A DNA stretch of 64,000 nucleotides from Escherichia coli (GCF_041886205.1 NZ_CP169029.1); one strand, 5' to 3'; positions 23,762-62,840 are shown, counted from the stretch's first letter. Numbers and translations: made by a program. Notes: generated from the sequence alone by a model not told the origin.

Positions 23762-24216
23762 TGGAGTTAATGGTCGTTCATCCACATATTTTCTGGCTCA
23801 GTCTCGGCGGTTTGCTGCTGGCAGCCGAGATGCTGGGCGGAAATGGTTATTTGTTGTGGAGCGGCGTGGCAGCGGTGATTACCGGCCTGGTGGTCTGGCT
23901 GGTGCCGCTGGGTTGGGAGTGGCAAGGGGTAATGTTTGCCATCCTGACGCTGCTCGCCGCCTGGCTGTGGTGGAAATGGTTGTCGCGGCGGGTGCGCGAA
24001 CAAAAGCACAGCGATAGTCATTTAAACCAGCGCGGGCAGCAGCTGATTGGCCGACGTTTTGTGCTGGAATCTCCGCTGGTCAACGGGCGCGGTCATATGC
24101 GCGTCGGTGACAGTTCATGGCCTGTCAGCGCCAGCGAGGATCTCGGTGCAGGTACGCATGTTGAAGTCATTGCGATAGAAGGGATAACCCTACATATCCG
24201 AGCCGTCTCGTCTTAA
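23758..24216 (+). CDS. ybbJ: NfeD-like inner membrane protein
   Basis: 152-aa ORF overlapping qmcA stop by 4 bp (ATGA). Confidence 0.85.
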
Positions 24217-24624
24217 TCACCCTGCCCGATGATGACAGCAGCCGGAGAGATTTTCGATAATCGGGCAGTCGGCGCTGTCATCGCCAGGGCAGGCATTCGC
24301 CAGTGCCAGCAGCTGGTCGCGCATGGATTGCAGCTCCTCAATGTGTCGTTCGATCTCCGCCACCTTCTCCAGCGTGCGCCGTTTGACGTCGGCGCTGTGC
24401 CGCTGCGGGTCGTTAAACAGATTCACCAGCTCGCCGCTCTCTTCCAGGTTAAAGCCCACCTGCCGTGCCTGGCGCAGTAAGGTCAGTTCGTTGAGATGCT
24501 GCTGCGTGTAGGTGCGATAACCGTTTTCGCTGCGCATCGGCGGCGTCACCAGCCCCTTCTCTTCATAGAAGCGAATGGCTTTGCTGGTCAGGCCGGTAAT
24601 TTTTGCTACATCGCTGATGTTCAT
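24217..24624 (-). CDS. cueR: MerR-family copper-responsive regulator
   Basis: [24 protein letters not shown] and C-terminal Cys pair, 135 aa. Confidence 0.92.
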
Positions 24625-24748
24625 CGTTCGCGCAACGCCTCCTGTGCTTTGTTAAAGGGTTTCAACAGATATTCAAGCACGTTTTTTTGCCAGTGCGAAT
24701 ATCGACCGCCACCACAATAATACAGGAAGTACTGCGCACAGAGAGATG

Positions 24749-26041
24749 TTATACGGTTTTATTGCGCTTCATGACCATTGCCACAATAAGGCTGAGTAAG
24801 AGTGAGCCAATAATCCATATCAACGCACGGCTACCCTGGGACCACAGACTGTAGATAAAGCCAACGATCACCAACAACATCACCAACGTACCAACGATAA
24901 GAATCGGCAACGAGGCGTGAATATCATGACGCAGGCGGATCGCCACCACAAACACCGCCAGGTAGCAAATCAAAAAGGTGGCGCTGGCAACGCTGGCGAG
25001 TGAGCCTAAATTCAGTGCCGCCGTCATCAGCATAATCAACACCACGACAATAATGTTGCCCCAGGTACTCTGCCGCCACAGGGATTTATTCATTAGCTTC
25101 GGCAGTTCGCGTTCGCTGCCCATGTTGTCCATGATGTTAAACACGGCGAACAGGTTCGCGTTAATGGCTGAAGCCGTCGCCAGTAAAGCGCCGATGACGA
25201 CGATCACATAACCCACATGCCCGAGCAGCGGAGAAGCAGCCTGCGCTACGGCGGTATCGGCATATTTTTCTAACTCTAATGCCGATACATCGCTAAGCAA
25301 AACCAGTGCCAGCGAGATATAAAGCAACGTGGTAACGCCAATCGCCACCAGAAACGCCCGCGGCATAATGACCTGCGGATCTTTCACTTTATCCGCCGCG
25401 TTCGCCATCATGCCAAAGCCCGCATAGGCAAGGAAAGTTATCCCAATACAGGAGAAGAACGCACCGGAGCTGGGGGGCGCAGAGACGGAAATATGCGCCG
25501 GTTGCAGCGACCAGACACCGGCAATAATCAGCAATAACAGGATCATCATTTTAATGCCGACGAGGATCACTTCCAGCCGCCCTACCGCATGGTTGCTTAA
25601 GGAGTTGAAAAGCGTCATCACCGCAATGATCCCCAACGCGTAGAGCAAAATAAGGTGCTCCTCCTGGCTGCCTTCATGCAAAAACTGCACGGCATAAGCG
25701 CCAAAAGCACGGGCGACCATGGCGATGCTCACCGCCAGCGTCAACAGGTACAGTAACGAGAGCGCCAGCGAAAAGACGCCGTTACCTAATCCGCGACGAA
25801 AGAAGTCGATAATGCCGCCATTGCTGGGATAGCTCGCCCCCAGGCGCGCATAGGCATAACCGGAAAACATCGCCACAATACCGCCAAAAGCAAAGGCGAC
25901 CCAGGTCGAGGCTTCCATTAGCAATGCAGCCTGCCCCAGCAGCGCGAAGATCCCCGCCCCCACCATTGCCCCAATGCCGATGGAAACGACGTTCCATAGA
26001 CCGAGAGGTTTGTTACCGTTATTACCTTCCGTGTTCATCAT
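24749..26041 (-). CDS. ybaT: APC-family amino-acid transporter
   Basis: 430-aa polytopic membrane ORF, directly downstream of glsA. Confidence 0.85.
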   Translation of the reverse strand: MMNTEGNNGNKPLGLWNVVSIGIGAMVGAGIFALLGQAALLMEASTWVAFAFGGIVAMFSGYAYARLGASYPSNGGIIDFFRRGLGNGVFSLALSLLYLLTLAVSIAMVARAFGAYAVQFLHEGSQEEHLILLYALGIIAVMTLFNSLSNHAVGRLEVILVGIKMMILLLLIIAGVWSLQPAHISVSAPPSSGAFFSCIGITFLAYAGFGMMANAADKVKDPQVIMPRAFLVAIGVTTLLYISLALVLLSDVSALELEKYADTAVAQAASPLLGHVGYVIVVIGALLATASAINANLFAVFNIMDNMGSERELPKLMNKSLWRQSTWGNIIVVVLIMLMTAALNLGSLASVASATFLICYLAVFVVAIRLRHDIHASLPILIVGTLVMLLVIVGFIYSLWSQGSRALIWIIGSLLLSLIVAMVMKRNKTV

Positions 26042-26043
26042 GA

Positions 26044-26976
26044 TCAGCCCTTAAACACGTTATAGCCGAGTTGCTTAGCGACCGATGCCACCATTTTTTG
26101 ACCGCGAACACTGTTGCCTTCTTCGTCCAGCGGTGGTGAGAACGCGGCAATTCCCATCACGCCAGGGACGACCGCCAGAATACCGCCACCTACACCGCTT
26201 TTGCCCGGTAAACCAACGCGATACGCCCAGTCACCGGAGCGACCATACAGCCCTTCCATCATCATTTCGGCCAGAATATACGGCACGTTGTCGGCCTGAA
26301 GAACGCGTTCATGCGTCAGCGGATTCACCCCCCCCGCCGCCAGCGTCGCGCCAAGCGTTGCTAGTTCAACAGTATTGATGAGCGTGGAGCACTGACGGGT
26401 ATACACGTCACAGGCTTCCATTGCATCACAATAGAGATATCCGGCGGAGTACAGCAGCCAGGCAATGGCCCGGTTATGGAAGTTGGTTGTTTGTTCCGAC
26501 AGGTTGACTTCGTCAGAGAGCGCTACCAGCTCACCAGCCAGTTGCTGTTGGATATGTAAAATTCGCTGCCAGCGTTGTTCGGCATTTTCAGCGTTAATCA
26601 GGCTGGTGGTGGCAATAGCGCCAGCATTTACCAGTGGCGAAAGCGGTTTGCCGCCATGCAACTCTAAGGCGATAACTGAGTTAAAGGGCAATCCGGTCGG
26701 GTCAGCGCCAATTTTGTCCTGTACCGCCTGCGGGCCGACATCTTCTAACGCGAGGGCTAACGTACAGACTTTCGAGATGGATTCCAGCGCAAAGCGGTAA
26801 TCACTGTCACCCGCACTATAGACGTTGCCATCGCTGGTCACGATAGCCACTGCTGCCAGTTGACCAGGCACATTCGCCAGAAAGGGAATGTAATCGGCAT
26901 TTTGTCCGCCGTTAAGTGAGTGAAATTGGGTGTGAGCCTGATCCACTGCCTGCTGTAATTTGTTTGCATCTAACAT
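26044..26976 (-). CDS. glsA: glutaminase 1
   Basis: 310-aa serine-dependent glutaminase ORF. Confidence 0.9.
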   Translation of the reverse strand: MLDANKLQQAVDQAHTQFHSLNGGQNADYIPFLANVPGQLAAVAIVTSDGNVYSAGDSDYRFALESISKVCTLALALEDVGPQAVQDKIGADPTGLPFNSVIALELHGGKPLSPLVNAGAIATTSLINAENAEQRWQRILHIQQQLAGELVALSDEVNLSEQTTNFHNRAIAWLLYSAGYLYCDAMEACDVYTRQCSTLINTVELATLGATLAAGGVNPLTHERVLQADNVPYILAEMMMEGLYGRSGDWAYRVGLPGKSGVGGGILAVVPGVMGIAAFSPPLDEEGNSVRGQKMVASVAKQLGYNVFKG

Positions 26977-27167
26977 CTTTTGTTAACTCCTTTTTATAGA
27001 TGCGGGAGGTAATTCCTCACCCCGGTGCCGATTTTCAGGCATCCTGATTTAACTTAGCACCCGCAACTTAACTACAGGAAAACAAAGAGATAAATGTCTA
27101 ATCCTGATGCAAATCGAGCCGATTTTTTAATCTTTACGGACTTTTACCCGCCTGGTTTATTAATTTC

Positions 27168-27198
27168 TTGACCTTCCCCTTGCTGGAAGGTTTAACCT
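27168..27198 (+). promoter_or_regulatory. CueR-dependent copA promoter (MerR-type, 19-bp spacer with dyad)
   Basis: ttgacc -35 followed by inverted repeat ccttccccttgctggaagg, about 45 bp upstream of copA ATG. Confidence 0.7.
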
Positions 27199-27237
27199 TT
27201 ATCACAGCCAGTCAAAACTGTCTTAAAGGAGTGTTTT

Positions 27238-29742
27238 ATGTCACAAACTATCGACCTGACCCTGGACGGCCTGTCCTGCGGTCACTGCGTTAAACGCGTG
27301 AAAGAAAGTCTTGAACAGCGTCCGGATGTTGAGCAGGCGGATGTGTCTATCACTGAAGCGCACGTTACCGGGACTGCCAGTGCAGAACAGCTGATCGAAA
27401 CCATCAAACAAGCGGGTTATGACGCATCTGTAAGCCACCCAAAGGCTAAACCGCTGGCGGAGTCATCAATCCCGTCGGAAGCACTGACAGCGGTTTCTGA
27501 GGCGCTTCCGGCAGCGACCGCCGATGACGATGACAGCCAGCAGTTGCTGCTGAGCGGCATGAGCTGCGCCAGCTGTGTCACCCGCGTACAAAATGCGTTG
27601 CAAAGCGTACCGGGCGTCACTCAGGCACGGGTAAACCTGGCGGAGCGTACTGCGCTGGTGATGGGCAGTGCCTCCCCACAAGATTTAGTGCAGGCGGTGG
27701 AAAAAGCGGGCTACGGTGCGGAAGCGATTGAAGATGACGCTAAACGCCGCGAGCGCCAGCAAGAAACCGCCGTAGCTACGATGAAGCGCTTCCGCTGGCA
27801 GGCAATTGTTGCACTGGCTGTGGGTATCCCGGTAATGGTCTGGGGGATGATCGGCGATAACATGATGGTCACCGCTGACAACCGCAGCTTGTGGTTAGTT
27901 ATCGGCCTGATAACCCTGGCAGTGATGGTTTTCGCCGGCGGCCATTTTTACCGCAGTGCATGGAAAAGCCTGCTGAACGGTGCAGCGACGATGGATACGC
28001 TGGTGGCGCTGGGAACGGGTGTGGCGTGGCTCTATTCGATGAGCGTCAACCTGTGGCCGCAGTGGTTCCCGATGGAAGCGCGGCATCTTTACTATGAAGC
28101 CAGTGCGATGATTATCGGTCTGATTAATCTCGGCCATATGCTGGAAGCGCGCGCACGTCAGCGTTCTTCTAAGGCGCTGGAGAAATTACTCGATTTAACC
28201 CCACCGACGGCGCGAGTGGTCACCGCAGAGGGTGAAAAAAGCGTGCCGCTGGCGGAAGTTCAGCCAGGGATGTTACTGCGCCTGACGACCGGCGATCGCG
28301 TGCCGGTAGATGGCGAGATTACCCAGGGCGAAGCATGGCTGGATGAAGCGATGCTGACGGGCGAACCAATCCCACAGCAAAAAGGCGAAGGCGAAAGCGT
28401 CCATGCCGGGACAGTGGTACAGGACGGCAGTGTGCTGTTTCGTGCCAGTGCGGTTGGCAGCCATACCACGCTGTCACGGATCATTCGCATGGTGCGCCAG
28501 GCCCAGAGCAGCAAGCCAGAAATCGGTCAGCTGGCGGATAAAATCTCAGCCGTATTTGTACCTGTGGTGGTGGTGATTGCGCTGGTCAGTGCGGCAATCT
28601 GGTACTTCTTTGGTCCGGCACCGCAAATTGTTTATACCCTGGTGATTGCCACCACGGTACTGATTATCGCCTGTCCGTGTGCGCTGGGGCTGGCGACGCC
28701 GATGTCGATTATTTCCGGCGTCGGGCGGGCGGCTGAGTTTGGCGTGCTGGTGCGGGACGCCGACGCGCTGCAACGCGCCAGTACACTCGATACCGTCGTG
28801 TTCGATAAAACCGGGACGCTGACCGAAGGGAAGCCGCAGGTTGTCGCAGTGAAAACGTTTGCTGATGTTGATGAAGCGCAGGCATTGCGTCTGGCGGCGG
28901 CACTGGAGCAAGGTTCCAGCCATCCGCTGGCACGGGCGATCCTCGATAAAGCAGGTGATATGCAGCTGCCGCAGGTCAACGGTTTCCGCACATTGCGCGG
29001 GCTGGGCGTGAGCGGTGAAGCTGAAGGTCATGCGTTATTGCTGGGCAATCAGGCGCTGTTAAATGAGCAACAGGTTGGTACCAAAGCTATCGAAGCGGAG
29101 ATTACTGCTCAGGCATCGCAAGGAGCAACGCCTGTGCTGCTGGCGATTGACGGGAAAGCAATAGCCCTGCTGGCTGTACGCGATCCGTTGCGTAGTGATA
29201 GCGTGGCGGCGCTGCAACGCCTGCATAAAGCGGGATATCGTCTGGTGATGTTGACCGGGGATAACCCAACCACCGCCAATGCGATCGCCAAAGAAGCCGG
29301 GATTGATGAGGTGATAGCCGGGGTGCTGCCGGACGGTAAAGCCGAAGCGATCAAACGTCTGCAAAGTGAAGGACGTCAGGTGGCAATGGTGGGCGACGGC
29401 ATTAACGATGCGCCAGCGCTGGCCCAGGCAGATGTCGGCATTGCAATGGGCGGCGGCAGTGATGTTGCCATTGAAACCGCGGCGATTACCCTGATGCGCC
29501 ATAGCCTGATGGGCGTTGCGGATGCGCTCGCTATTTCCCGCGCAACGCTGCGCAACATGAAGCAGAACCTGCTCGGCGCGTTTATCTACAACAGTATCGG
29601 TATTCCGGTCGCCGCCGGTATTTTGTGGCCGTTTACTGGAACACTGCTTAACCCGGTGGTTGCCGGAGCGGCAATGGCGCTCTCGTCGATTACCGTAGTG
29701 AGTAACGCCAACCGGTTGCTGCGGTTTAAACCGAAGGAATAA
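27238..29742 (+). CDS. copA: Cu(I)-exporting P1B-type ATPase
   Basis: Two GMSCxxC metal-binding domains, [16 protein letters not shown] motifs, 834 aa. Confidence 0.95.
27438..27444 (+). promoter_or_regulatory. copA programmed -1 frameshift slippery site
   Basis: CCCAAAG at codons 68-69; -1 frame reads GGC then TAA stop, giving the short CopA(Z) product. Confidence 0.6.
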
Positions 29743-29749
29743 GTACGTC

Positions 29750-30038
<289 letters not shown>

Positions 30039-30536: not shown

Positions 30537-31331
30537 ATGGATCTGTTGTACCGGGTAAAAACGCTTTGGGCCGCGCTGCGCGGTAATCATTACACCTGGC
30601 CTGCCATCGATATCACCCTCCCCGGCAATCGCCATTTTCATCTGATTGGCAGTATTCATATGGGTAGCCACGATATGGCTCCCCTGCCCACCCGTTTGCT
30701 CAAAAAGCTCAAAAACGCCGATGCGCTGATCGTCGAGGCGGATGTTTCCACCAGTGATACGCCTTTTGCTAATTTGCCTGCCTGCGAGGCGCTGGAAGAG
30801 CGCATTAGCGAGGAGCAACTCCAAAACCTGCAGCACATTAGCCAGGAGATGGGCATTTCTCCCTCGCTCTTTTCTACCCAACCGCTGTGGCAAATCGCGA
30901 TGGTTCTTCAGGCGACGCAGGCACAAAAACTGGGGCTGCGGGCAGAATACGGTATCGATTACCAGCTATTGCAGGCGGCGAAGCAACAACATAAACCCGT
31001 GATTGAACTGGAAGGGGCTGAAAACCAGATTGCCATGTTGCTCCAGCTCCCTGACAAAGGACTGGCGCTGCTGGACGATACGCTGACCCACTGGCATACC
31101 AACGCACGGTTGCTGCAACAAATGATGAGCTGGTGGCTGAATGCACCGCCGCAAAATAATGATATAACGCTGCCCAATACGTTCAGTCAGTCGCTGTACG
31201 ATGTGCTGATGCATCAGCGAAATCTCGCCTGGCGGGATAAATTACGCGCCATGCCGCCGGGGCGATATGTGGTCGCGGTCGGTGCACTACACCTGTATGG
31301 AGAAGGGAATTTGCCGCAAATGTTGCGCTAA
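30537..31331 (+). CDS. ybaP: TraB-family protein
   Basis: 264-aa ORF, synteny. Confidence 0.85.
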   Translation: MDLLYRVKTLWAALRGNHYTWPAIDITLPGNRHFHLIGSIHMGSHDMAPLPTRLLKKLKNADALIVEADVSTSDTPFANLPACEALEERISEEQLQNLQHISQEMGISPSLFSTQPLWQIAMVLQATQAQKLGLRAEYGIDYQLLQAAKQQHKPVIELEGAENQIAMLLQLPDKGLALLDDTLTHWHTNARLLQQMMSWWLNAPPQNNDITLPNTFSQSLYDVLMHQRNLAWRDKLRAMPPGRYVVAVGALHLYGEGNLPQMLR

Positions 31332-31413
31332 AAAAATGGCCAATATCGCTATTGGCCCGTCAAAGAGGAATTTCATTTTTTTATTATTATGCCGTCACTT
31401 TAAGCGACGGTGT
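31331..31413 (-). ncRNA. chiX: sRNA ChiX (MicM/SroB)
   Basis: Minus-strand sequence acaccgtcgcttaaagtgacggcataataataaaaaaatgaaattcctctttgacgggccaatagcgatattggcc + U-run matches ChiX from memory; terminator hairpin ggccaata/tattggcc. Confidence 0.85.
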
Positions 31414-37088: not shown

Positions 37089-37173
37089 GTAGGCATGATA
37101 AGACGCGCCAGCGTCGCATCAGGCATCGAGAGCCAAATGCCAGATGCGGCGTGAACGCCTTATCTGGCCTACG
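37089..37173. repeat. BIME (REP pair)
   Basis: gtaggcatgataagacgcg...catcaggca and tgccagatgcggcgtgaacgccttatctggcctac. Confidence 0.75.
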
Positions 37174-44488: not shown

Positions 44489-46420
44489 TCAAATGGGGCG
44501 GATACTTTCTTCATCCAGCTCCGCATCGAAAAACCGACGCAGGGTCTGAATATTATTATCCGCAATAATGGACTCGCGCGCCTGCGCAAGTTTTTCTTCG
44601 TATATCGCCTGACGCCACTCCAGCGGCGTACGCACCGCGGGATTATCATCTTCAACGATAGTCAGTTCAACCGTTGAACCTTTTAACATGCTCAACGCTT
44701 CAGCCAGTTTTTGCTGTGCACCGCGGTTGTTCAAATGCCGCTGAGAGGAGCGCAAATGCAGACATACTGCGTTGTCGCTCTCCTCTTTCCAGGCATTTAA
44801 CGCCACCTGTTCGACCAGTTTTGGTAGCGAAAGTTGGCTCACCTGTGCCGCCCACGGGTCGCGCTCAATGGCTTCTGCCGCCAGCTTCGCCGCCAGTTCC
44901 GGCGTTTTTTCATGTTCCAGCGCTTTTTTCAGCGCCTTCGGCGTGGCGACCACTTCTTTTTGCTGCATCACTGGAGTGGTAGCCTTCCAGCGATACGCTT
45001 CTTTTTTGGCTGGCGCTTTTTCCAGCGCCGATGGCACCGGACGCGCCTGAACGCGATCGGTGACCGAAGCCAGTCTTTCCAGCGCAGCGTTATTCACCGG
45101 CCGCGCGCGGGTAGCGGCTGCCGGTTCACTCTTTTTTGCTTTGGTTGCTCCCTGCACGCGCTGCAACTGCTGGCGCGCCGCCAGCACCTGGCTGGTGGTT
45201 TCCGGGAGCGGTACAGTCGGTGCCTGCTGCGGCGCTGATTGCGGTTGCGGCGGCACCTGGGTTGGCGTCATTACTGCCGTTGGCGCGACGGGCGCAAAGG
45301 ACTGGCGTGGCACTTCTGGCTCAGGCAGAGGCATACGTGGATGGAACGCCAGCGCGCGCAGCAGCGTCATCTCAACGCCCATGCGGCGGTCCGGCGCATA
45401 CGGTAATTCTTTGCGACCAATCAACAGCGTCTGATAGTAAAGCTGAATATCCGTCGGCGGTATGGTGCGCGCCAGTTCACGCATCCGCAGCTCAATGGCG
45501 GCCATGTCGTTGCCAAGTGCAGCAGGCGAAAGTTGTACCATCGCAATACGATGCAACAGGCCGAGCATTTCCACCAGCAACGCTTCCCACTCGATACCAC
45601 GGGCAGCGGCTTCATTAATCAGCGCCATTACGCGCTCGCCGTTGGCCTCGACCATCGCTTCAACCAGCGACAGCGCCTGATCGTCATCAAGCGTACCCAG
45701 CATCGCACTGACTGCCTGGGTTGAAACCTGGCCGTCACCGCTGGCAATCGCCTGGTCGGTCAGACTTAAGGCATCTCGCAGGCTGCCTTCAGCGGCGCGC
45801 GCCAGCAATTGCAACGCCCGCGGCTCGTGAGCGATATGTTCTTCGTTGAGGATGTGCTCAAGTTGATGGCGAATTTGCTCGACATCCAGCGCCTTGAGAT
45901 GAAATTGCAAACAGCGCGACAAAATCGTCACCGGCAATTTCTGTGGATCGGTCGTCGCCAGCAGAAACTTAACGTGCTCCGGCGGCTCTTCAAGGGTTTT
46001 TAACAGTGCGTTAAAGCTGTGGCGCGACAGCATATGCACTTCGTCGATCAGATAAACTTTGAAACGACCACGCGCCGGAGCGTACTGGACGTTATCCAGC
46101 AGGTCGCGGGTATCTTCAACTTTGGTGCGCGAGGCGGCGTCGATTTCAATCAGATCGACAAAGCGCCCCTGCTCGATTTCACGACAGTTATCGCACACGC
46201 CGCACGGCGTCGCGGTAATGCCGGTTTCGCAGTTTAGCCCCTTCGCCAGCAGTCGGGCGATAGAGGTTTTTCCGACGCCACGGGTGCCGGAAAAAAGATA
46301 AGCATGATGAATACGCCCTAACGACAAGCCGTTCGCCAGTGCGGTCAGCACATGTTCCTGGCCGACGACGTCAGCAAAGGTTTGTGGGCGCCATTTTCGG
46401 GCTAAGACCTGATAACTCAT
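44489..46420 (-). CDS. dnaX: DNA polymerase III tau/gamma subunits
   Basis: 643-aa ORF with AAA+ Walker A GTRGVGKT. Confidence 0.95.
   Translation of the reverse strand: MSYQVLARKWRPQTFADVVGQEHVLTALANGLSLGRIHHAYLFSGTRGVGKTSIARLLAKGLNCETGITATPCGVCDNCREIEQGRFVDLIEIDAASRTKVEDTRDLLDNVQYAPARGRFKVYLIDEVHMLSRHSFNALLKTLEEPPEHVKFLLATTDPQKLPVTILSRCLQFHLKALDVEQIRHQLEHILNEEHIAHEPRALQLLARAAEGSLRDALSLTDQAIASGDGQVSTQAVSAMLGTLDDDQALSLVEAMVEANGERVMALINEAAARGIEWEALLVEMLGLLHRIAMVQLSPAALGNDMAAIELRMRELARTIPPTDIQLYYQTLLIGRKELPYAPDRRMGVEMTLLRALAFHPRMPLPEPEVPRQSFAPVAPTAVMTPTQVPPQPQSAPQQAPTVPLPETTSQVLAARQQLQRVQGATKAKKSEPAAATRARPVNNAALERLASVTDRVQARPVPSALEKAPAKKEAYRWKATTPVMQQKEVVATPKALKKALEHEKTPELAAKLAAEAIERDPWAAQVSQLSLPKLVEQVALNAWKEESDNAVCLHLRSSQRHLNNRGAQQKLAEALSMLKGSTVELTIVEDDNPAVRTPLEWRQAIYEEKLAQARESIIADNNIQTLRRFFDAELDEESIRPI
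45129..45135 (-). promoter_or_regulatory. dnaX programmed -1 frameshift site (A AAA AAG)
   Basis: Plus-strand cttttttt = minus-strand AAAAAAG; -1 frame reads GAG then UGA. Confidence 0.8.
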
Positions 46421-62726: not shown

Positions 62727-62840
62727 GGGTGGGGGCCCTGCCAGCTACATCCCGGCACACGCGTCATCTGCCTTGGCTGCTTCCTTCCGGACCTGACCTG
62801 GTAAACAGAGTAGCGTTGCGGGAGAACCAACAGAGCCCCC
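62727..62840 (-). ncRNA. ffs: 4.5S RNA (SRP RNA)
   Basis: Reverse complement reads GGGGGCUCUGUUGGUUCUCCCGCAACGC...GGCAGGGCCCCCACCC, 114 nt, matching 4.5S RNA from memory. Confidence 0.95.

Follow-up and report, generated by a model that had tools for sequence, protein, structure and literature searches.

The CCCAAAG slippery site of Escherichia coli copA: a known programmed frameshift and the conservation of its downstream RNA pseudoknot

Organization of the copA Locus

The window analyzed in this work is a stretch of 64,000 nucleotides of Escherichia coli DNA (GCF_041886205.1, NZ_CP169029.1), and all positions are counted from its first letter. The gene copA occupies positions 27238–29742 of its plus strand as an open reading frame of 834 codons, the product of which is matched by the Pfam families HMA (twice), E1-E2_ATPase, and Hydrolase. 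Of 5426 complete E. coli genomes, 5422 contain a match to the 601 bases surrounding the site under study (27100–27700), and each of these labels the region copA. Direct inspection of the sequence locates the heptamer CCCAAAG at 27438–27444 on the plus strand, inside copA. The features that are referred to below are as follows.

27168..27198, plus strand: copA promoter region (inverted-repeat search)
27238..29742, plus strand: copA zero-frame product, an 834-aa Cu(I)-exporting P1B-type ATPase (open reading frame, Pfam, genome annotation)
27238..27449, plus strand: CopA(Z) recoded CDS, 27238..27444 joined to 27444..27449, base 27444 being read twice (identity with K-12, HMA match)
27277..27288, plus strand: CGHC copper-binding motif of the first metal-binding domain (MBD1), codons 14–17 (translation; within the HMA match)
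27438..27444, plus strand: slippery heptamer C CCA AAG, made up of the final base of codon 67 and of codons 68–69 (invariance among orthologues)
27444..27449, plus strand: Gly70 (GGC) and stop (TAA) of the -1 frame (translation; position of the -1 stop in orthologues)
27445..27450, plus strand: 6-nt spacer between heptamer and stem S1, holding the -1 stop (same length in all orthologues)
27451..27460, plus strand: 5' arm of pseudoknot stem S1, CCGCUG-G-CGG (pairs with 27484–27493)
27474..27482, plus strand: 5' arm of pseudoknot stem S2, GUCGGAAGC, within the S1 loop (pairs with 27504–27512)
27484..27493, plus strand: 3' arm of pseudoknot stem S1, CUG-A-CAGCGG (pairing in the alignment; frozen synonymous sites)
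27504..27512, plus strand: 3' arm of pseudoknot stem S2, GCUUCCGGC (pairing in the alignment; P91 is CCG in 57/58)

Upstream of the gene, the -35 element of the copA promoter is TTGACC (27168–27173), and TAACCT, which follows after a 19-nt spacer, is its probable -10 element. A perfect 7-nt inverted repeat, ACCTTCC-N7-GGAAGGT (27171–27177 and 27185–27191), is present in this region, and on the basis of established knowledge we take it to be a putative CueR-type dyad. A sigma-70 scan limited to spacers of 16–18 nt returned no promoter at 27168..27198, as is expected where the promoter is of the MerR type.

Counting from the ATG start codon of copA at 27238, codon 67 is CAC (27436–27438), codon 68 is CCA (27439–27441), and codon 69 is AAG (27442–27444), which sets the heptamer in the X XXY YYZ register of a canonical -1 programmed ribosomal frameshifting (PRF) cassette, and C CCA AAG is able to re-pair as CCC AAA. 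The codons that follow a slip into the -1 frame are GGC (27444–27446) and TAA (27447–27449), and the resulting product consists of 70 aa (MSQ...SVSHPKG). This product contains an entire HMA domain (Pfam residues 8–62; E = 1.2e-13; score of 51.7 bits, the cut-off being 24.8), and its CGHC motif lies at residues 14–17; the frameshift thus severs the protein neatly behind MBD1. The original prediction, made from the sequence of the window, had placed CCCAAAG in register at codons 68–69, with GGC TAA next in the -1 frame and a copper chaperone of roughly 70 aa, derived from the first metal-binding domain, as the outcome; the coordinates and the count from the ATG agree with the register, and the -1 codons and the HMA match bear out the remainder.

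Identity with the K-12 Reference and Its Annotation

In the K-12 MG1655 reference genome, a two-piece joined CDS (511168..511379; YP_009518752.1), described as "soluble Cu(+) chaperone," is annotated in addition to copA (b0484). Positions 27238–27449 of the window are identical to this joined CDS at 212 of 212 nucleotides. Over the whole gene, the first 360 nt of the present copA allele are identical to those of K-12, and 72 differences, resulting in 7 aa changes, are found in the other 2145 nt. The 212-nt span of the K-12 join ends at the -1 stop, in a position that agrees with a heptamer at codons 68–69; these join coordinates fix the position of the slip independently. They also agree with the identity of the heptamer itself, CCCAAAG being what we take to be the published copA slippery sequence. 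The copA site is, hence, the already known CopA(Z) programmed frameshift and does not constitute a new finding.

The prediction had described the site as known biology that could be checked against the published frameshift, and both the K-12 annotation and the literature on -1 frameshifting in copA uphold this description, the comparison with the published site being the 212-nt identity given above. It had also claimed that a gene-only annotation hides the site, which is correct for annotation produced by PGAP, the record of strain LHM10-1 (100% identical over 27100–27700) listing a single copA CDS, but not for K-12, in which the product is annotated. The LHM10-1 record does mark an IS1 "programmed frameshift" and a "DnaX frameshifting element." The window is collinear with LHM10-1 for about 3 kb on either side only, and a search for the IS1 "programmed frameshift" within the window found it to be absent.

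Conservation of the Slippery Site

The heptamer by itself is not enriched in the window: CCCAAAG occurs 8 times on the two strands, as compared to 8.82 ± 3.04 occurrences expected from shuffled sequences. The copA copy is the only one of these 8 that is in register within a long open frame (848 codons) and that has a -1 stop one codon farther on.

Orthologous sequences were assembled in three sets. A genome scan with full-length CopA, which was dominated by the universal MVGDGIND motif, yielded three Enterobacterales loci, and the first set is comprised of L001 (Citrobacter) and L002 (Enterobacter). The second set consists of seven loci (L081–L087) recovered with divergent homologues of the N-terminal 190 aa; these stem from truncated gene calls (<=333 aa), with a possible bias toward disrupted copA genes, and an independent metagenome set gives the same result. 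The third set consists of 56 metagenome loci retrieved by means of the degenerate pattern C-G-H-C-[V/I]-K-R-V-K-E-[A/V], which cannot bias the slip site because it lies about 150 nt upstream of it.

CCCAAAG is present in all 63 of the orthologous loci that reach the site and is in register in 61 of them. The two out-of-register loci are E. coli-type contigs of 0.7–1.4x coverage that carry a one-base deletion inside the search pattern. Among the 54 unique sequences the heptamer is invariant, and the positions around it are constrained in a manner that does not follow the encoded protein. Codon 67 specifies nine different amino acids (viz. H, S, L, Y, R, F, N, P, and D) but always ends in C; codon 70 specifies A, T, P, or S but is always NCT; and codon 71 specifies K, N, D, or E but is always RAN. 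Because codon 70 is NCT and codon 71 is RAN, a -1 stop is found one codon past the slip in every one of the 54 sequences (TAA in 9 and TGA in 45). Codon choice within the heptamer points in the same direction, Lys69 being AAG in 58/58 sequences, whereas the other conserved Lys residues are AAA in 57/58, and Pro68 being CCA in 58/58, whereas other conserved Pro residues favor CCG. Within E. coli, a 36-mer around the site was found in 5417 of 5426 complete genomes and is exact in 5351; in the one single-mismatch genome that was inspected, the difference is a synonymous change (G27459T) outside the heptamer.

This constraint extends beyond the heptamer. The mean entropy of four-fold codons is 0.26 bits for codons 68–92 (n = 12) vs. 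1.42 bits for MBD1 (n = 24), a difference with a Mann-Whitney p of 1.5e-6 that leaves the synonymous sites of the former region nearly frozen. These patterns show that the heptamer, the -1 stop, and both pseudoknot stems (S1 and S2) are under strong purifying selection at the RNA level.

The RNA Pseudoknot Downstream of the Site

The prediction had suggested folding of 27445–27520 as a check for a stimulatory structure. The nested minimum free energy fold of this interval has an energy of -26.9 kcal/mol and a z-score of -1.05, which is no better than that of a shuffled sequence, so that the suggested check, although carried out, is uninformative by itself. Because nested folding cannot represent a pseudoknot, it was replaced by the counting of base pairs in the orthologue alignment. 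This revealed two interleaved helices, S1 and S2, that form an H-type pseudoknot beginning 6 nt past the heptamer. The spacer between heptamer and S1 is 6 nt in all 54 sequences, within the range of about 5–9 nt of a canonical -1 PRF cassette, and a single nucleotide (A27483) separates the 5' arm of S2 from the 3' arm of S1, as in the classical H-type geometry. Evaluated alone, S1 has an energy of -9.2 kcal/mol and S2 of -14.2 kcal/mol. Since the sequence is that of K-12, the published pseudoknot is present here by identity.

Stem S1 of E. coli (27451–27460/27484–27493) is made up of 6 bp, a G x A mismatch (27457/27487), and a further 3 bp. Its 6-bp core is paired in 100% of the 54 sequences and the extension pairs are formed in 54/54, 54/54, and 53/53; taken together, the ten pairs of S1, nine of which form in E. 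coli, are 97.6% paired over the 54 sequences, as compared to 22–54% in slid controls. Three S1 pairs change on both sides (viz. C-G to A-U; U-A in 37, C-G in 13, and U.G in 4 sequences; and A-U in 51, G.U in 2, and G-C in 1), although the sequences are related and these changes hence represent few independent events. The paired percentage and covariation score of S1 were reached in 0 of 500 shuffles. Within the 3' arm of S1, synonymous codons are frozen, T84 being ACA in 53/53 and T85 ACG in 41/41 sequences. A further extension of S1 by AAA/UUU (27448–27450/27494–27496) was considered and rejected, as it is found in E. coli only and is unconserved in L001 and L002.

The support for stem S2 (27474–27482/27504–27512) consists of conservation almost without covariation. 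Its outer 5-bp core is 98–100% paired and nearly invariant, and the Pro codons that it includes are frozen as CCG (P79 in 44/44, P80 in 52/52, and P91 in 57/58 sequences). Pairing at the inner four positions is seen chiefly in E. coli-like sequences, and these positions are unpaired in 20, 36, 2, and 28 of about 52 sequences, respectively. A search of 27000–28000 against Rfam 15 recovered no family above noise (best hit 14.5 bits, E = 4.9); this is not evidence against the copA element because no copA model exists in Rfam.

Distribution and Lineage Variation of the Cassette

In a sample of 53 CopA genes from distant prokaryotes, in-register heptamers following MBD1 were found in 11 loci vs. 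about 10.6 expected, and none of them is CCCAAAG; a wider conservation of the site among distant CopA proteins was accordingly rejected, heptamers occurring there at the background rate only. Photorhabdus (L003) and several other CopA proteins are without the linker between MBD1 and MBD2 and without the site. The cassette is confined, in this sample, to CopA of the Enterobacteriaceae type and to Erwiniaceae-like CopA. Stem S2 differs by lineage within this range, being 9 bp in E. coli and 5–6 bp in Pantoea-like sequences, and in the locus L118 a plain 11-bp hairpin is present instead.

One reading of these observations, which we put forward tentatively and would not rate as the likelier one, is that the cassette is older and more modular than the description from E. 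coli conveys, with an invariant core common to Enterobacteriaceae and Erwiniaceae-like lineages (viz. the heptamer, the -1 stop held in the spacer by the NCT and RAN codons, and S1) and a lineage-variable S2. If this reading is true, the ratio of chaperone to pump would be tuned lineage by lineage, and the stop codon might be held ahead of the structure to spare slipped ribosomes the need to unwind it. The constancy of the wobble base in codons 67 and 70, the longer S1 with its covariation, and the variation of S2 between lineages may represent a modest addition to what is known of the element.

Proposed Mechanism and Alternative Explanations

The CopA(Z) frameshift was reportedly described by Meydan et al. 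(2017 Mol Cell 65:207) and Drees et al. (2017 Mol Microbiol 106:635). Published work on E. coli copA documents efficient -1 frameshifting that yields a 70-aa chaperone (PMC5009743, PMC6771820), and the literature on this frameshift describes CopA(Z) as protective against copper. The frameshift is stimulated jointly by the slippery sequence, the mRNA pseudoknot, and the nascent chain (PMC7558416), and the nascent CopA peptide encoded here has the K-12 sequence. Single-molecule assays found that ribosomes stall at the copA pseudoknot, which induces -1 PRF (PMC6182138), and in ribosome profiling a drop in density follows the copA -1 stop (PMC9548414); the latter source also states that Drees 2017 independently confirmed the frameshift. 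We regard it as virtually certain that the site in the window is this established -1 programmed ribosomal frameshift, and none of the results speaks against it.

In the mechanism that we envisage, a ribosome whose P site holds CCA (Pro68) and whose A site holds AAG (Lys69) would meet the RNA structure 6 nt downstream, and the pseudoknot, from what is generally known of -1 PRF in E. coli, would resist unwinding at the mRNA entrance. The P-site tRNA-Pro would then re-pair from CCA to CCC and the A-site tRNA-Lys from AAG to AAA, after which the slipped ribosome would read GGC and the TAA of the spacer and release the 70-aa CopA(Z), a soluble Cu(I) chaperone, while ribosomes that do not slip would yield the 834-aa pump. 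A single copA mRNA would in this manner give rise to pump and chaperone at a set ratio. With the -1 stop placed before S1, slipped ribosomes probably leave the pseudoknot folded when they terminate.

That the heptamer is present by chance, with no recoding and with the short product arising by proteolysis or transcriptional slippage, would fit the ordinary frequency of CCCAAAG in the window (8 vs. 8.8 expected) and the unremarkable nested fold downstream, but a run of three A residues is too short for efficient transcriptional slippage. Nor would chance leave the heptamer conserved in 54/54 sequences with critical bases fixed while flanking amino acids vary, or Lys69 and Pro68 fixed as the otherwise avoided codons AAG and CCA; the K-12 reference moreover annotates the join, and ribosome profiling and an independent study confirm the frameshift (PMC9548414). 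In view of the conservation pattern and the published experiments, this explanation is refuted in practice, and we give it next to no credence. A different proposal accepts the frameshift but assigns its stimulation to the S1 stem-loop alone, as in dnaX, with S2 being dispensable or lineage-specific. S1 is paired everywhere and covaries, the inner four pairs of S2 are often unpaired and its core shows no changes on both sides, and L118 has deleted the 5' arm of S2 and possesses a perfect 11-bp S1 hairpin (z = -5.4), so that stimulation by S1 alone is plausible in some lineages. As a general account it is unlikely: the outer 5 bp of S2 remain 98–100% paired across protein divergence of up to about 50%, the Pro codons of S2 (P79, P80, and P91) are frozen as CCG, and in stem-1 and stem-2 variants the induction of -1 PRF tracked ribosome stalling (PMC7558416, PMC6182138).

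The conserved downstream RNA could also have another or an additional role, e.g., in forming or stabilizing the 3' end of a short copA(Z) transcript or in the stability or regulation of the mRNA. Differential transcript formation is named beside frameshifting in the title of Drees 2017 (cited in PMC7558416), the synonymous freezing runs to codon 92, well beyond the slip site, and L118 has two strong hairpins past the site. Against this, no site resembling an intrinsic terminator is found in or just past the element, the sole match within 27000–27900 lying at 27035–27047, upstream of copA. The constant 6-nt spacer between heptamer and S1 fits the spacing that a frameshift stimulator should have, and the stalling of ribosomes by the pseudoknot is proportional to frameshifting (PMC6182138). 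We consider such a role quite unlikely, and it would in any case be compatible with the frameshift rather than exclusive of it.

Significance for Annotation

The frameshift allows one mRNA to supply a membrane copper pump and a soluble chaperone in a fixed ratio, and very few other non-mobile genes of bacteria employ -1 frameshifting. The 70-aa CopA(Z) is missing from most E. coli proteomes, pipelines of the PGAP type listing a single copA CDS, and for the window the copA site matters only as a point of annotation. The fixed arrangement NNC / C CCA AAG / NCT RAN, followed by S1 after the 6-nt spacer, is a possible rule for annotating CopA(Z) across the Enterobacterales, and the comparative signature could seed the alignment for a covariance model across this group.

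Comparison with Known Systems

The element described here is the same as the CopA(Z) site of K-12, with the heptamer, the GGC TAA codons, the 70-aa product, and the pseudoknot region all identical, and the differences between the two copA alleles (72 nt, 7 aa) are located only after nt 360. A second chromosomal system, dnaX, is represented in the same window at 45092–45156 on the minus strand by the only Rfam frameshift element that was matched (RF00382). Its slippery sequence is A AAA AAG, which is accompanied by a simple stem-loop and, on its upstream side, by an internal Shine-Dalgarno sequence and gives rise to the gamma and tau subunits. Both dnaX and copA are chromosomal, non-mobile cases of -1 PRF with an AAG Lys codon in the A site and a structure after a short spacer, and frameshifting in either gene yields a shortened, N-terminal form of the protein, with translation stopping almost immediately in the -1 frame. 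Unlike dnaX, copA employs C CCA AAG and a pseudoknot, and no motif resembling a Shine-Dalgarno sequence is seen upstream by eye. Rfam includes a model of the dnaX element and PGAP marks it, whereas neither holds for copA.

In terms of its product, CopA(Z) resembles the chaperones of the CopZ/Atx1 type (e.g., CopZ of Enterococcus hirae and Bacillus subtilis), which likewise consist of about 70 aa with an HMA fold and a CXXC motif. For both the CopZ-type chaperone and CopA(Z), delivery of Cu(I) to the CopA pump has been proposed (PMC7558416). The two differ in origin, CopZ having its own gene, whereas CopA(Z) is recoded from the pump mRNA and, apart from its C-terminal Gly, has the same sequence as the pump's MBD1.

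For human ATP7B, the orthologue of copA, an analogous -1 frameshift is said to have been proposed in the same 2017 paper as the bacterial one. Loughran et al. (2022) concluded that the ATP7B frameshift is a reporter artefact, the human gene showing no synonymous-site conservation and a variable heptamer (PMC9548414). Bacterial copA differs from ATP7B on both of these tests, displaying in the present analysis both conservation at synonymous sites and a constant heptamer.

Conservation and variation of the copA frameshift site

The first 360 nt of copA (window 27238-29742), which comprise MBD1, the frameshift cassette and the start of MBD2 (MBD1 and MBD2 being metal-binding domains of CopA), show no differences from the K-12 sequence, and the remaining 2145 nt carry 72 differences (3.4%); a uniform rate would predict about 10 differences in the first 360 nt. 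The invariance of this segment could be caused by a constraint at the RNA level, or it could reflect a recombination boundary. Natural variation at the site within E. coli includes the synonymous change G27459T (GCG to GCT; window numbering) in strain GN4738 (NZ_CM177114.1), which converts a G.U pair in the extension of the pseudoknot stem S1 to U x U and leaves the heptamer, the -1 stop, the S1 core and the second stem, S2, unaltered. A 36-mer around the slip site was matched with a single mismatch in at least 66 of 5426 complete E. coli genomes and was unmatched in 5 genomes, although copA is present in them.

A more extensive change was identified in a metagenome locus (L118):

Contig Ga0209463_1001340, ~100 nt after its CCCAAAG: variant frameshift cassette

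The heptamer, the -1 stop and the 6-nt spacer of this cassette are unchanged, and the 5' arm of S2 has been lost through a 9-nt deletion. S1 is here a perfect 11-bp hairpin, followed on its 3' side by a second hairpin of 10 bp (GGCCUUUGAU...GUCAAAGGCC), and folding of the cassette gives an MFE of -40.2 kcal/mol (z = -5.4). Hence, in this lineage the pseudoknot appears to have been replaced by a plain stem-loop.

Among 53 distant prokaryotic CopA genes scanned for in-register heptamers after MBD1, one paralogue (L060) is of note:

Propionigenium maris NZ_BSDY01000033.1, ~residue 69: CopA paralogue

The GY motif closing MBD1 is immediately followed by an in-register A AAA AAA, and the -1 frame meets a stop one codon further on; this slip-site geometry is the same as that of E. 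coli copA. Such heptamers occur at the background rate in these AT-rich genes and, therefore, this arrangement may be due to chance.

Promoter and gene organization of copA

Window 27168-27198, + strand: copA promoter region, perfect dyad ACCTTCC-N7-GGAAGGT (arms 27171-27177 and 27185-27191)

The dyad overlaps the -35 element TTGACC. A sigma-70 scan of this region was negative, as a promoter here would have a 19-nt spacer, a length typical of MerR/CueR-activated promoters. In Klebsiella and Erwiniaceae-like loci (L081, L084, L085 and L086), copA and a MerR-family (CueR-like) gene are adjacent and divergent, whereas in E. coli (window ~24200-27238) copA is separated from cueR by glsA and ybaT.

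Gene calling splits copA into two ORFs in L081 and L083-L086: the first, of 250-314 aa, holds the N-terminal HMA part and the second the ATPase part. The position of the break varies from locus to locus and the sample was selected for short proteins; thus, the likely cause is selection bias together with assembly errors or pseudogenes.

Other RNA elements in the window

29854-29931 and 29955-30032, both strands: two copies of naRNA4 (RF02564), REP-derived, copA-ybaQ intergenic region
31330-31413, - strand: sroB
37092-37169: third copy of naRNA4 (RF02564)
45092-45156, - strand: dnaX -1 frameshift element (Rfam RF00382, 96.8 bits, E = 5.8e-20)
62736-62832, - strand: SRP RNA

The dnaX element and the copA site are separated by ~17.6 kb, both inside the 64-kb window. 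PMC10861913 names three frameshift genes of E. coli that are well characterised and non-mobile, viz. dnaX, prfB and copA, and two of these are therefore neighbours here.
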